A stretch of DNA of 64,000 nt from a virus (lineage: Duplodnaviria > Heunggongvirae > Uroviricota > Caudoviricetes): IMG/VR virus record IMGVR_UViG_2778261375_000003; one strand, written 5' to 3'. This document shows positions 48,575-64,000 of the stretch, piece by piece. The position numbers and the translations under genes were made by a program. The notes under the pieces were generated by a model. That model had not been told where the DNA came from, did no database searches, and worked only from the letters and a program-made list of their open reading frames with translations. Position 1 is the first letter of the stretch. Every line of letters starts with the position of its first letter.

Positions 48575-48591
48575 ATTGCTCTAATTGATTG
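48575..48591 (+). promoter_or_regulatory. C1-operator-like motif upstream of ref
   Basis: ATTGCTCTAATTGATTG with an overlapping partial copy ATTGCTATAATTG; ref is known to be C1-controlled in P1. Confidence 0.6.
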
Positions 48592-48657
48592 CTATAATTG
48601 AGCCGCAGTTTTTGTCAACTACGAAGACGTGCCATTACTTAACTCCTTGACATCATA

Positions 48658-48683
48658 GGCGGCCATTAGGCCGCCTTTTTTTT
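48658..48683 (+). terminator. Intrinsic terminator or attenuator ending 7 nt before the ref start codon
   Basis: GGCGGCC-atta-GGCCGCC followed by T8. Confidence 0.5.
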
Positions 48684-48689
48684 GACCAT

Positions 48690-61845: not shown

Positions 61846-62403
61846 TTATTCATTGACAAGCCCCGTCAGGCAAAGCTGGCGTTCTTTTTCACGGCGAATC
61901 TTTAAACCTCGCAGGGGCACGCCGTTACTGTTCACGAAATCAGGGAGATGGTTACACATATTCACCCATTCCCCTTTCTGCGCCCACTTGTGGATGGACG
62001 TTTCTACTCGCATGCCTCGCGCTTTGCTGTAGTAGGTCCGTAAGCTATTGCATCCCATATTGAATGCCGCGCTTGTCATTGCACTGAAGGCATTATCGGG
62101 CATGTCTTTGCCCCGGAAGTGCTGATTAATACAGCGTTCAGCGATCAGGATATTCTTTTCCCAATCAGCGGCGATTTGCTGGTCGGTTTTTCGCACACCC
62201 GGCGTTACCCCGTGTGTATTACCGATCCCGTCAGTCCATACCCCCGCCGGGCACATGTATGGATCACGTCGGCAACCTTCAGCGTTACCAATCAGCTCAA
62301 GCCCCGCCTGGTTGGTTCGCACATTGCCATTACCCATCACGATGGTAATCATCACCGCGATAGCGCAAATTGCACCGCCTCCTGCGGCTGTTTTTCCCTT
62401 CAT
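61846..62403 (-). CDS. lyz: Endolysin (lysozyme) with N-terminal signal-anchor-release-like segment
   Basis: 185 aa from MKGKTAAGGGAICAIAVMITIVMG (start after GAGG); hydrophobic N-terminus then a lysozyme-like body. Confidence 0.8.
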   Translation of the reverse strand: MKGKTAAGGGAICAIAVMITIVMGNGNVRTNQAGLELIGNAEGCRRDPYMCPAGVWTDGIGNTHGVTPGVRKTDQQIAADWEKNILIAERCINQHFRGKDMPDNAFSAMTSAAFNMGCNSLRTYYSKARGMRVETSIHKWAQKGEWVNMCNHLPDFVNSNGVPLRGLKIRREKERQLCLTGLVNE

Positions 62404-62536
62404 AAAGACCTCATAAGCGAATTTTTTACGCTCCAGGACAAACACCCATTCACAGCCAATACCGACTGACTCGATCCCTTTAGAAGGCACAGGATAATGC
62501 AAATCACTTGTTAGCTACGTTTCAAAGATATACATT

Positions 62537-62553
62537 ATTGCTCTAATTAATTT
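62537..62553 (+). promoter_or_regulatory. C1-operator-like motif upstream of ssb
   Basis: ATTGCTCTAATTAATTT, 20 nt before the ssb start. Confidence 0.55.
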
Positions 62554-62572
62554 ATTTTATTAGGTAAGATAA

Positions 62573-63061
62573 GTGGCACAACGCGGTGTAAACAAAGTCA
62601 TCCTGATTGGTACCCTGGGGCAAGACCCGGAGATCAGGTATATACCAAATGGCGGAGCGGTCGGAAGACTCAGCATCGCAACGAATGAATCATGGCGCGA
62701 CAAGCAAACGGGCCAACAGAAAGAGCAAACAGAATGGCATAAAGTCGTTTTGTTCGGAAAACTTGCTGAAATTGCGAGTGAGTATTTACGAAAAGGTTCT
62801 CAGGTCTACATCGAAGGGAAACTTAAAACCCGTAAGTGGACAGATGACGCCGGTGTAGAACGTTACACGACGGAAATTATCGTCAGCCAGGGCGGCACCA
62901 TGCAAATGATCGGCGCTCGCCGCGACGATTCACAATTCTCAAATGGCTGGGGGCAGTCAAACCAACCTCAAAACCACCAGCAATACAGCGGTGGCAGTAA
63001 ACCTCAGAGCAACGCCAATAGCGAACCTCCAATGGACTTTGAAGACGATATTCCATTTTGA
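62573..63061 (+). CDS. ssb: Single-stranded DNA-binding protein
   Basis: 162 aa, GTG start; OB-fold core and acidic C-terminal tail ending DDIPF. Confidence 0.9.
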
Positions 63062-63195
63062 GAGGGCTGAAAGTTGCTCGATTACTTAAAAATAACTTTA
63101 CCTAATTGGTGTAAAAAAATGGGCGCAACAAAGCGCCCCAACAATAGAGTTTCAAATTAATAAAAAGGTAATAAATAACATGAAGTTAAATTGAG

Positions 63196-63290
63196 AAGAG
63201 GCAATTTTATTGCCTCTTCAAAGGTGGCATGAGGGTGCCACCTATATGCGGGCAGTGACATCACTCCCTTCCCGCATATTCTTACCTACC
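63196..63290 (-). terminator. Cluster of three hairpins downstream of the porin gene
   Basis: GAAGAGGCAAT/ATTGCCTCTTC, GGTGGCA/TGCCACC and ATATGCGGG/CCCGCATAT stems. Confidence 0.4.
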
Positions 63291-63294
63291 AAAA

Positions 63295-64000
63295 TTAGAA
63301 TTGGTAGGTCATACCAACAGCAACGATGTTGTCGGTTGCAACCTCAGATCTTTTGGTAAATTCACTTTCATCAATCAGGTTGATCTTGTAGTCAACGAAA
63401 GCGGACATATTTTTGTTGAAGTAATAAGTCGCACCCAAGTCGATGTATTCAACCAGATCCTGGCTGCCGAACGCACCAATATTTTCACCGCGAGAGTGCA
63501 GATAAGCGATGGACGGACGCAGGCCGAAATCAAACTGGTATTGAGCAACAGCTTCAAAGTTTTTCGCCTTGTTCGCGATAAAGTCATCACCGAAGACAGT
63601 CATATTCTGAGTTTCAGAATAAGTTGCAGCCAGGTAAATGTTATTTGCGTCATATTTCAGGCCAGTAGCCCATACTTCAGCAGTTTTACCAGAAGCATTC
63701 AGAGGATCCTTTTTAGCATAGGATACCTGCCCATCAGTACGATCAGATTTTGCATAGGTTGCACCAACGCCAAATCCTTCATAATCGTAAGTAGCAGACA
63801 GACCAAAGCCATCACCATTAGATTCAACTACGTCACGGCCTTTCCAGTTGTTCACTTTTGCAGCACTATCATTTTTACCTTGATACTGCAAAGCAAAGTT
63901 CAGACCATCAACCAGGCCGAAGAAATCATTGTTACGGTAGGTGGCTACGCCAGTAGCACGCTGGGTCATAAATACATCGGTCTGAGTCCAGGTATCTCCA
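63295..64000 (-). CDS. OmpC/PhoE-family outer-membrane porin, C-terminal ~234 codons; 5' end beyond the window
   Basis: Frame is open to the window edge; [26 protein letters not shown] ... [12 protein letters not shown] ... [16 protein letters not shown] ... [17 protein letters not shown] ... [11 protein letters not shown], ending in the porin C-terminal F. Confidence 0.8.

Follow-up and report, generated by a model that had tools for sequence, protein, structure and literature searches.

A P7-type porin cassette with an IpeX-like 3' untranslated region in a P1-like phage-plasmid: a possible porin swap in lysogens

The stretch of viral DNA analysed here (IMG/VR record IMGVR_UViG_2778261375_000003; 64,000 nt, the window) ends in the 3' part of a porin gene, followed on the same strand by a structured 3' untranslated region (3'UTR) that is homologous, though diverged, to IpeX, an RNA derived from the 3'UTR of lc/nmpC. 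IpeX, which is made within the porin transcript, represses OmpC and OmpF (PMC12197685, PMC5069750, PMC7177473, PMC3333887). The phage-plasmid cassette, with its IpeX-like 3'UTR, would probably (about 60%) perform a porin swap in lysogens. A porin after ssb is common in P1-like plasmids and is annotated as nmpC in P7, so it is nothing new as such. The new element of this analysis is the IpeX-type 3'UTR on the P1/P7-type porin cassette, and a modest added value lies in its recognition together with explicit predicted pairing sites in ompF and ompC.

Position and limits of the cassette

Directly ahead of the cargo, the backbone has ssb as its last gene (62573..63061, plus strand), an ORF with 97.9% identity to P1 ssb, at whose stop codon homology to P1 ends in both the alignment and blastn; elsewhere, the window resembles P1 at 97-99% identity. 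There follow a 9-nt junction between backbone and cassette (63062..63070, no strand), which the alignment finds to be common to P7-type elements only, and the in-window part of a mobile porin cassette made up of 3'UTR and coding sequence (63071..64000, minus strand). The alignment with a chromosomal copy of the cassette begins at window position 63071, and identical relatives carry roughly 595 bp more of the cassette beyond the window edge, comprising codons 1-136 of the porin gene and a promoter region that contains a CRP site. Projected from these relatives, the porin ATG would fall at about 64407, the CRP site at about 64520-64535 and the end of the cassette at about 64595; an AT-rich spacer of 332 bp would come next, and homology to P1 would resume at about 64928 with the 3' end of isaB, ahead of hxr/odaA, ddrB, ddrA and darA. 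In P1, ssb is followed by isaA, IS1 (insB/insA) and isaB, as the initial annotation had stated in part (isaA and an IS1 copy). The isaA-IS1-isaB segment is variable region 2 of P1-like phage-plasmids, and the post-ssb site is a hot spot of IS traffic (PMC9603915).

A query with positions 62500-64000 matched 503 plasmid records; in 107 of them the match extends over at least 80% of the query, which takes in the porin part. Records at least 99% identical to this region number 53, and the complete P1-like plasmids among the matches listed (30 of 30) are 100% identical to it. An nmpC-type porin cassette is present after ssb in about one fifth of sequenced P1-like phage-plasmids, in addition to P7. 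The phages JL22 and phi456 share 99.9% nucleotide identity with the region and P7 shares 96.8%, the gene being annotated in P7 as an nmpC precursor and named nmpC in PMC6906374. The porin genes of P7 (AF503408 / NC_050152), JL22, phi456 and pE2855-2 (there 'porin OmpC/OmpD') occupy the same locus, convergent with ssb, and in relatives the intact porin ORF is followed by odaA/hxr, prt/ddrB, odaC/ddrA and darA. Thus, the porin of the window is the long-annotated nmpC cargo of P7, ordinary and already known, and the novelty that the initial annotation implied is absent.

The cassette is a self-contained transcription unit, comprising a promoter region, a 370-codon porin gene and a structured 3'UTR of about 185 nt with a terminator. 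The promoter region lies beyond the window and was read by eye in identical relatives, where a perfect, consensus CRP site (TGTGATTTTGATCACA) is located 113-128 nt upstream of the porin ATG; the -35/-10 hexamers below it, likewise read by eye, would place this site near -72. A generic promoter scan of the same upstream region in relatives returned a single site, on the plus strand. In the window, a minus-strand promoter scan of 62400-64000 yielded no promoter-like site, which is consistent with, although not proof of, a predicted RNA derived from the porin transcript.

The porin gene

The coding sequence fragment (63298..63999, minus strand) comprises codons 137-370 of 370, from after the loop 3 PEFGG motif to the C-terminal ...YQF, so that the window holds 63% of the gene, at its 3' end. 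Its translation on the minus strand continues for 234 codons without a stop from 63999 to 63298, reaching the window edge, and finishes in VAVGMTYQF*, with the aromatic end residue that closes the last beta-strand. The stop codon TAA (63295..63297, minus strand) falls inside the loop of a hairpin of 9 bp (63284-63309). Against Pfam PF00267 (Porin_1; cut-off 23.7), these 234 codons score 307 bits (E=2e-91) over profile positions 108-337 of 337. The initial annotation had described the 3' part of an OmpC/PhoE-family porin gene on the minus strand, with a frame open as far as the window edge, on a P1-like backbone, and all of this is borne out.

Relatives that are 100% identical to the window carry a complete 370-codon porin ORF with the N-terminus MKKITVALSAVAASVLMAMSAQA/AEIYNK, and it is from them that an intact 5' part, with the N-terminal 136 codons, and a promoter are assumed for this element. 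The full-length protein of these relatives scores 494 bits against PF00267 and 530.4 bits against NCBIfam NF007841 'porin OmpC' (cut-off 484), and it stays below the cut-offs of the PhoE and OmpF equivalogs (495.5 against 599 and 452.1 against 583, respectively). Its PDB matches to OmpC and Omp36 span the entire mature protein, with E about 1e-133 to 1e-136, and it aligns end to end with the solved chains. The porin is of the NmpC/Lc/OmpD type within the OmpC subfamily. E. coli OmpC, Enterobacter Omp36 and Klebsiella OmpK36 belong to the same fold family, and K-12 OmpC is 63% identical to the window-type porin. However, the phage-plasmid porin is not the orthologue of chromosomal ompC, from which it differs in its promoter, its 5'UTR and the lack of a micF neighbour.

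The structured 3'UTR

The initial annotation mentioned a hairpin cluster downstream of the porin gene and took it for mere downstream structure. The cluster is real, with five inverted repeats within 63121-63309 (63121-63138, 63195-63219, 63222-63243, 63244-63279 and 63284-63309), and it is the porin 3'UTR (63113..63294, minus strand), located on the porin strand between the phage porin stop codon and the Rho-independent terminator, as IpeX is. In the 5' to 3' direction, this region is composed of a long hairpin, SL1 (63244..63279), with compensatory changes between variants; an 8-bp hairpin, SL2 (63222..63243), also with compensatory stem changes, whose loop CCCUCA (63230-63235) is almost invariant across the family in the alignment; a perfect 11-bp hairpin, SL3 (63195..63219), seen also in the per-variant folds; a conserved single-stranded core of 21 nt, AACUUCAUGUUAUUUAUUACC (63167..63187), the predicted seed; and the terminator of the porin transcript (63113..63138), identified by a terminator scan as GGGCGC-N6-GCGCCC followed by U7, all of them on the minus strand.

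For the 186-nt RNA of the minus strand, the folding energy is -66.9 kcal/mol, and 200 shuffles give -42.1 +/- 3.8 kcal/mol (z = -6.5; none of the 200 as good). Folding the variants one by one reveals a single architecture shared by all of them. RNAalifold on a 50-sequence MAFFT alignment missed SL3 because the variants were misaligned there; the folds of the single variants and a structure defined by hand on a less noisy alignment were used in its place. Double changes affect 8 of the 21 RNAalifold pairs and 9 of the 39 hand-defined pairs, a level reached in none of 500 shuffles. The core appears nearly invariant in the 50-sequence alignment, which is partly forced, since the loci were retrieved by the core pattern. 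It lies 104-108 nt past the porin stop in 121 of 122 loci found by pattern and in 80 of 80 found through the protein, the latter set covering only porins at least 82% identical.

Homology to IpeX

Alignment of the window 3'UTR with those of PA-2 lc and 434/DLP12 nmpC shows compensatory stem changes. With a covariance model built from lambdoid-type 3'UTRs alone, leaving out the P7-type sequences, the window scores 75.5 bits (E about 1e-20) and the DLP12 ipeX region 211.8 bits; the chromosomal ompC and ompF loci gave no significant match to the 3'UTR covariance model. The homology extends to PA-2 Lc and to DLP12 and 434B NmpC along the whole transcription unit, including 5'UTR, coding sequence and 3'UTR. 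The PA-2/DLP12 3'UTR is about 70% identical to that of the window in nucleotides, with hairpin order, core and terminator in common, and the 3'UTRs of P7 and of the window are identical.

The Rfam scan of 62400-64000 (E<=10) returned, apart from noise, GcvB (RF00022) with 30.5 bits, below its gathering score of 42. The DLP12 ipeX region itself gave zero Rfam matches, so IpeX lies outside the coverage of Rfam 15, and the sub-threshold GcvB hit, given that the homologous DLP12 region lacks any match, is put down to chance or to a similar architecture.

Predicted pairing with ompF and ompC

The core (63167-63187) is antisense to positions -11..+9 of ompF; extended by its 5' flank as far as 63190, it is also antisense to positions -6..+12 of ompC. 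The target stretches are GGUAAUAAAUAA (ompF -11..+1) and AAUAACAUGAA (ompC -6..+5). Folding the whole 3'UTR against 155-nt targets gave meaningless whole-length duplexes and was replaced by short single-stranded queries, with shuffled, background and negative-target controls and with accessibility ignored. Under these settings, the window-type core pairs with K-12 ompF through 12 Watson-Crick pairs, one G-U pair and 6 further pairs (E = -26.2 kcal/mol), and with ompC through 11 + 6 pairs (E = -20.8 kcal/mol); the PA-2-type core forms 15 pairs with the Shine-Dalgarno region of ompC (E = -26.7 kcal/mol). Among 500 shuffles none equals the ompF duplex, and among 10,472 background windows 5 do; for the PA-2-type core with ompC the figures are 0 of 500 and 0 of 10,472, where the background is P1 DNA rather than genome-wide start regions and AU-rich seeds face AU-rich start regions. 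The start regions of ompA, phoE, ompX, lamB and the phage porins themselves gave duplexes of -4 to -15 kcal/mol with at most 7 contiguous pairs.

A more specific reading can be put forward tentatively and as a single whole, to which we would grant somewhat less than even odds. The P7-type 3'UTR may be a retargeted IpeX variant, with a core equivalent to an antisense porin start, in which the seed for ompC (UUCAUGUUAUU) and that for ompF (UUAUUUAUUACC) overlap. Members of the family might shift between ompC-optimal and ompF-optimal seeds, the complete porin swap might be performed by P1-like phage-plasmids, carriers of ESBL genes among them, and, as a corollary, classical IpeX might act on ompC by plain 15-bp Shine-Dalgarno pairing. 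If so, the porin swap would alter susceptibility to phages, colicins and antibiotics. Castillo-Keller et al. (2006) reportedly described no complementarity between ipeX and ompC and an Hfq-independent effect on ompC, and simple pairing may therefore fall short of the whole mechanism.

Proposed function and alternative explanations

We infer that the cassette is expressed in the lysogen, where it would produce the phage porin, and that the 3'UTR RNA would be processed from the transcript. Using its conserved unpaired core, this RNA would bind the ompF and ompC mRNAs around the ribosome-binding site and start codon and block their translation, while the plasmid porin's own mRNA would escape repression. 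It is proposed that, as a consequence of this block and this escape, the cell would swap its major porins, exchanging those of the host for a porin with different surface loops; diffusion capacity would be kept, and the receptors for OmpC- and OmpF-dependent phages and colicins would be removed. The literature on P1- or P7-borne porins provided no functional test of a P7-type porin or of its 3'UTR, and the porin is not mentioned in the phi456 and JL22 papers. Resistance genes are frequent on P1-like phage-plasmids, which pass between Escherichia, Salmonella and Klebsiella; if the proposal is true, these elements would remodel the porin set of the host. Such remodelling would bear on host range in phage therapy, on sensitivity to colicins and on permeability to beta-lactams, and the mode of action of IpeX would become clearer.

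Other explanations have to be weighed. The porin might be real, expressed cargo whose hairpins act in cis only, as a terminator and in mRNA stability, with the benefit coming from the permeability or surface of the porin itself. A clear intrinsic terminator is indeed present in its 3'UTR, multiple 3' hairpins commonly shield mRNAs from exonucleases, and the window-type 3'UTR is just some 70% identical to ipeX, with a 19-nt insertion before the terminator. However, the best-conserved stretch of this 3'UTR is the unpaired core and not the stems, and the complementarity of the core is specific to the start regions of ompF and ompC, not to the five other start regions. Furthermore, four separate hairpins plus a terminator exceed the needs of termination, and the homologous DLP12/PA-2 RNA has been published as a repressor of OmpC and OmpF. 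This cis-only explanation is thus considered unlikely. Still less probable is a passenger role without phenotype, with the cassette silent or decaying in this element because it is either unexpressed in lysogens or disrupted beyond the window, even if the nmpC genes of K-12 and phage 434B are inactivated by IS5, that of pSvP1 by IS10 (PMC6906374), the post-ssb site sees much IS traffic (PMC9603915) and the 5' third of the porin gene and its promoter lie outside the window. Against it, the 234 in-window codons are intact and 100% identical to intact full-length genes on dozens of plasmids, which stem from several genera, a consensus CRP site precedes the ATG in relatives, and the P7 and window porins (96% protein identity) differ mostly in predicted surface-loop segments, which suggests continued selection.

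Finally, the porin might mark the point where phage-plasmid and chromosomal host DNA meet, or a chimeric assembly, as the initial annotation had allowed in speaking of a junction with other DNA. Copies of the cassette exist in IS-flanked chromosomal islands, with blastn identities of 93% over 1,525 bp in one and 79% in another, and a mis-join via such a repeat is therefore conceivable in principle. However, the window is 100% identical to the plasmid/phage version of the cassette and just 93% identical to the chromosomal one, and the exact ssb-cassette junction, 9-nt linker included, is found in P7, JL22, phi456 and many closed circular plasmids, where the usual P1/P7 backbone follows. Since the same junction recurs in so many closed circular elements, this explanation is rejected as extremely improbable.

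Relation to lambdoid porins, MicF and P1

Lambdoid porins of the Lc/NmpC/OmpD group, among them PA-2 Lc, are 79.8-82.4% identical to the window-type porin in amino acids over 100% of its length (at least 35 phage porins), and blastn gives 74-75% nucleotide identity between lambdoid lc/nmpC and the cassette. A CRP site precedes the porin gene in both lambdoid lc/nmpC and P7-type relatives. The location, however, is different, between Q and the lysis genes in DLP12 and 434B and between ssb and the dar region in the P1-type element. The surface-loop segments are also unlike, one of the differences being a 6-residue insertion in the region of loop 4. From the P7 porin, the window-type porin differs in about 4% of amino acids. 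As for the seed, that of the window type fits ompF and the start codon of ompC best, and that of the PA-2 type the Shine-Dalgarno region of ompC.

The idea of lysogenic-conversion cargo, raised in the initial annotation, gains support from this homology (80-82% protein identity to Lc/NmpC) together with the IpeX-homologous 3'UTR. As to superinfection exclusion, also named there, OmpC is the receptor of PA-2, and this phage thus excludes itself. The receptor of P1-type phages, by contrast, is LPS and not a porin; self-exclusion by the window porin is therefore unlikely, and any exclusion benefit would be limited to other phages.

MicF is a functional analogue only. Its seed is likewise antisense to the ribosome-binding and start-codon region of ompF, as predicted for the window RNA, and the opposite strand of the core reads like the 5' end of a porin gene (GGTAATAAATAACATGAAGTTAAA). 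Nevertheless, the window RNA is not homologous to micF in sequence and lacks an Rfam match, it is the 3'UTR of a porin mRNA rather than the product of a divergent promoter, and ompC is a predicted target too.

An intact source of the IpeX-like relic of P1 was sought and not found. This relic adjoins IS1 in P1 and is confined to 15 P1-like plasmids.

The porin cassette and its relatives

The ssb gene (62573-63061, + strand) is followed by the 3' part of a porin gene on the - strand, a frame of 234 open codons (63999->63298; stop codon TAA at 63295-63297) that matches positions 108-337 of the 337 in Pfam Porin_1 (E=2e-91). The interval from ssb to the final porin codons holds five inverted repeats (63121-63138, 63195-63219, 63222-63243, 63244-63279 and 63284-63309), so that the porin fragment with hairpins described in the initial annotation is borne out. 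Its comparison with phage P1, placing isaA and IS1 after ssb there, was also correct, P1 carrying isaA, IS1 and isaB at that position, which is one of the eight variable regions in P1-like phage-plasmids (PMC9603915). From position 62400 the GC content falls to 43-45%, against ~52% in the backbone, and the remainder of the window is P1-like, with 97-99% identity.

The porin had been read either as lysogenic-conversion cargo or as the mark of a junction with other DNA. The stretch 62500-64000 is 100% identical to 30 of 30 complete plasmids among the matches listed, whose hosts are E. coli, E. fergusonii, Klebsiella and Salmonella; 53 plasmid records reach ≥99% identity, and the porin part is also covered in 107 of the 503 plasmid records matching this stretch. 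Among phage records, JL22 and phi456 are 99.9% identical and P7 96.8%. The porin ORF is complete (370-371 codons) in P7, where it is annotated as 'nmpC, NmpC precursor', with a signal peptide, and in plasmid pE2855-2; in both it is followed by odaA/hxr, prt/ddrB, odaC/ddrA and darA, the ordinary P1/P7 backbone. A chimera or a chromosome junction is therefore not supported, and the cargo reading is the one that homology supports. What the window holds is the P7-type nmpC cassette already on record, which dozens of sequenced elements carry without change; the porin itself is not new.

Scored with NCBIfam, the full-length identical protein exceeds the 'porin OmpC' subfamily cut-off (530 vs 484 bits) and stays below the PhoE and OmpF equivalog cut-offs, and solved OmpC, Omp36 and OmpK36 chains align with it end to end (E ~1e-133 to 1e-136). 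Its identity is 96% to P7 NmpC and to the copy in an E. coli SM107 chromosomal island, 83% to the E. coli A_5 copy and 81% to PA-2 Lc, with porins 80-82% identical in at least 35 lambdoid phage records; identity to the host porins is 63% (K-12 OmpC) and 60% (OmpF). Compared with Lc, differences, among them a 6-residue insertion in the loop-4 region, are concentrated in segments matching OmpC-type surface loops, an assignment presumed from the general fold, whereas the loop-3 constriction segment does not differ from that of Lc.

Cassette boundaries and mobility

According to both alignment and blastn, P1 homology extends up to the ssb stop codon (63061) and no further. It starts again in the 3' end of isaB, at position 8429 of L002, a P7-type relative identical over the porin region of the window (equivalent to ~64928). 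Inside the DNA replacing that of P1 there is a 1,525-bp unit (L002 6572-8096; window 63071 to ~64595), made up of the CDS with its 3'UTR and the 188 bp preceding the ATG, which is found elsewhere at 93% identity in the SM107 island, 79% in the A_5 island and 74-75% in lambdoid phages. The chromosomal copies of porin plus 3'UTR (SM107, L004 8001-9522; A_5, L005 6001-7465) are bracketed by insertion sequences: one island is flanked by ISEc16 and a TnpB remnant, and in the other, fragments of IS1, IS3, IS4 and IS110 surround the cassette, with a cdiBA locus nearby. This bracketing makes it appear that the unit moves independently of phages.

A perfect CRP consensus, TGTGATTTTGATCACA, is located 113-128 nt 5' of the porin ATG (L002 8021-8036; ~64520-64535, outside the window) and would sit ~72 nt 5' of the likely transcription start deduced from -35/-10 hexamers read by eye in L002; a generic promoter scan of the relatives' upstream region did not find this by-eye promoter. 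CRP sites are also annotated in PA-2 lc, and the likeness suggests a similar catabolite control of the cassette. Since 3'UTR, CDS and the CRP-bearing upstream stretch travel as one, the cargo is a transcription unit that is portable as a whole; the half with the promoter lies outside the window.

Between the cassette and the resumed P1 homology there is a 332-bp AT-rich spacer (L002 8097-8428; ~64596-64927, beyond the window), with no match in the compared P1, lambdoid and chromosomal loci or in non-P7-type E. coli genome hits; a small hairpin, CCTGTTAATTAACAGG, lies inside it.

The porin 3'UTR and IpeX

The 186-nt - strand RNA folds at -66.9 kcal/mol, vs -42.1 +/- 3.8 for shuffles (z = -6.5), and the 63121-63138 repeat, with U7 behind it, makes a textbook intrinsic terminator on that strand. 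On alignment, 63062-63300 (-) shows clear, diverged homology to the DNA downstream of PA-2 lc and 434B nmpC, with a common order of three hairpins, an unpaired stretch and a terminator, and with compensatory stem differences. The homologous lambdoid region is ipeX.

A 21-nt core pattern taken from this alignment retrieved at least 120 viral-contig DNA stretches. The core lies 104-108 nt past the porin stop codon in 121 of 122 pattern-retrieved extracts, and at the same distance in all 80 loci of an independent set retrieved through the protein, which covers porins ≥82% identical. Every 3'UTR variant has the same fold architecture, and of the 21 pairs given by RNAalifold 8 show compensatory double changes. 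In a cleaner alignment of 24 lambdoid-type 3'UTRs, a four-helix structure is paired in 96% of cells and shows double changes in 9 of 39 pairs, a level matched by 0/500 shuffles and no slid control. A covariance model built from those 24, excluding the P7 type, served as the formal membership test, giving 211.8 bits for the DLP12 ipeX region and 75.5 bits (E ~1e-20) for window 63156-63296 (-).

In lambdoid phages the 3'UTR DNA abuts gene Q, and its conservation there could reflect late-promoter functions on the opposite strand. In the P7-type element, however, it abuts ssb, and in the chromosomal islands IS elements; being retained with the porin in these contexts, it belongs to the porin unit. 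The homology indicates that the hairpin cluster is an IpeX-type 3'UTR, and reading it as a retargeted IpeX homologue with predicted pairing sites on ompF and ompC adds a useful, testable annotation, not a system of a new kind.

IpeX-type RNA is not represented by any Rfam family, and the sole Rfam match in the window was a sub-threshold GcvB (63113-63299, -; 30.5 bits vs a gathering score of 42, E=1.8e-4, over the full length of the model). As this match is missing from the DLP12 homologue, the resemblance is probably architectural or due to chance. The covariance model also has a weak match at 48582-48684 (+) (16.4 bits, E ~0.01-0.02), which it owes to a strong terminator-like hairpin, GGCGGCC...GGCCGCC, with a U-run after it, probably no more than an intrinsic terminator of the P1 backbone.

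The loop CCCUCA of the second hairpin (63230-63235, -) is almost invariant over all variants, its stem covarying, and might provide a further contact or bind a protein. A perfect 9-bp hairpin (ACCTACCAA / TTGGTAGGT, 63284-63309) holds the porin stop codon in its loop; alignments examined by eye have no such repeat at the corresponding position of PA-2-type sequence. It could affect translation termination, processing of the 3'UTR RNA or mRNA stability.

Predicted pairing and the proposed porin swap

The unpaired core (63167-63187, AACUUCAUGUUAUUUAUUACC) is complementary to the regions where translation of K-12 ompF and ompC, the two major host porins, starts. With ompF it would form 12 Watson-Crick pairs (GGUAAUAAAUAA, -11 to +1), a G-U, a one-base bulge and 6 pairs (AUGAAG), at a predicted -26.2 kcal/mol equalled by 0/500 dinucleotide shuffles and 5 of 10,472 background windows. 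With ompC, 11 pairs over the start codon (AAUAACAUGAA), a bulge and 6 further pairs would give -20.8 kcal/mol, equalled by 13/500 shuffles and 0.8% of background windows. The PA-2/DLP12 variant (AACCUUCUGUUAUAU; DLP12 locus L130 1365-1531, -) pairs more weakly with ompF than with ompC, whose Shine-Dalgarno region (AUAUAACAGAGGGUU, -21 to -7) it matches through 15 contiguous pairs (predicted -26.7 kcal/mol; 0/500 shuffles, 0/10,472 background windows). As negative controls, ompA, phoE, ompX, lamB and the phage porins' own start regions reached just -4 to -15 kcal/mol, with no run of contiguous pairs longer than 7. It has to be noted that these duplex predictions take no account of accessibility and set AU-rich sequence against AU-rich sequence.

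The controls agree with the phenotype reported for IpeX, which is said to lower OmpC and OmpF, not OmpA. The original paper, that of Castillo-Keller et al. from 2006, reportedly described no ompC complementarity and an Hfq-independent effect on ompC; either the 15-bp match went unnoted or pairing is not the whole story.

Taking into account the core complementarity and the negative controls, a porin swap is the best-supported mechanism that we infer for the cassette. The lysogen would express the plasmid porin, whose own mRNA would be a non-target, and the 3'UTR RNA would occlude the ribosome-binding sites of ompF and ompC, acting as a putative retargeted IpeX homologue with explicit pairing sites on both. 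P1-type phages adsorb to LPS, and for this reason any exclusion would fall on other phages and on colicins needing OmpC/OmpF, not on P1; permeability effects are an equally possible benefit.

Read on the + strand, the core (63164-63193) resembles a porin 5' end (AAAGGTAATAAATAACATGAAGTTAAATTG, vs GGGTTAATAACATGAAAGTTAAAG in ompC and GGGTAATAAATAATGATGAAG in ompF), and a porin start region copied in inverted orientation may have given rise to the seed, an origin proposed for micF. The covariance model weakly matches antisense to the ompC 5' end (K-12 ompC locus L128 1256-1391, 13.2 bits).

An IpeX-like relic in P1

In P1 (NC_005856), between the isaA stop (8554) and the IS1 end (8649), 8566-8636 (-) holds a relic resembling the core and terminator of the porin 3'UTR and abutting IS1 (AATTACACTTCATGTAATTTATTTCCC...GGGTGCTCTCTGGCACCCCTTTTT), which scores 19.8 bits (E ~0.001) with the covariance model. 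In most isaA-bearing plasmids homology is lost before the relic, and the 93-nt piece is confined to 15 P1-like plasmids and absent from chromosomes. IS1 may have carried this DNA along, or the relic may be what is left of a porin cassette after truncation by IS1.
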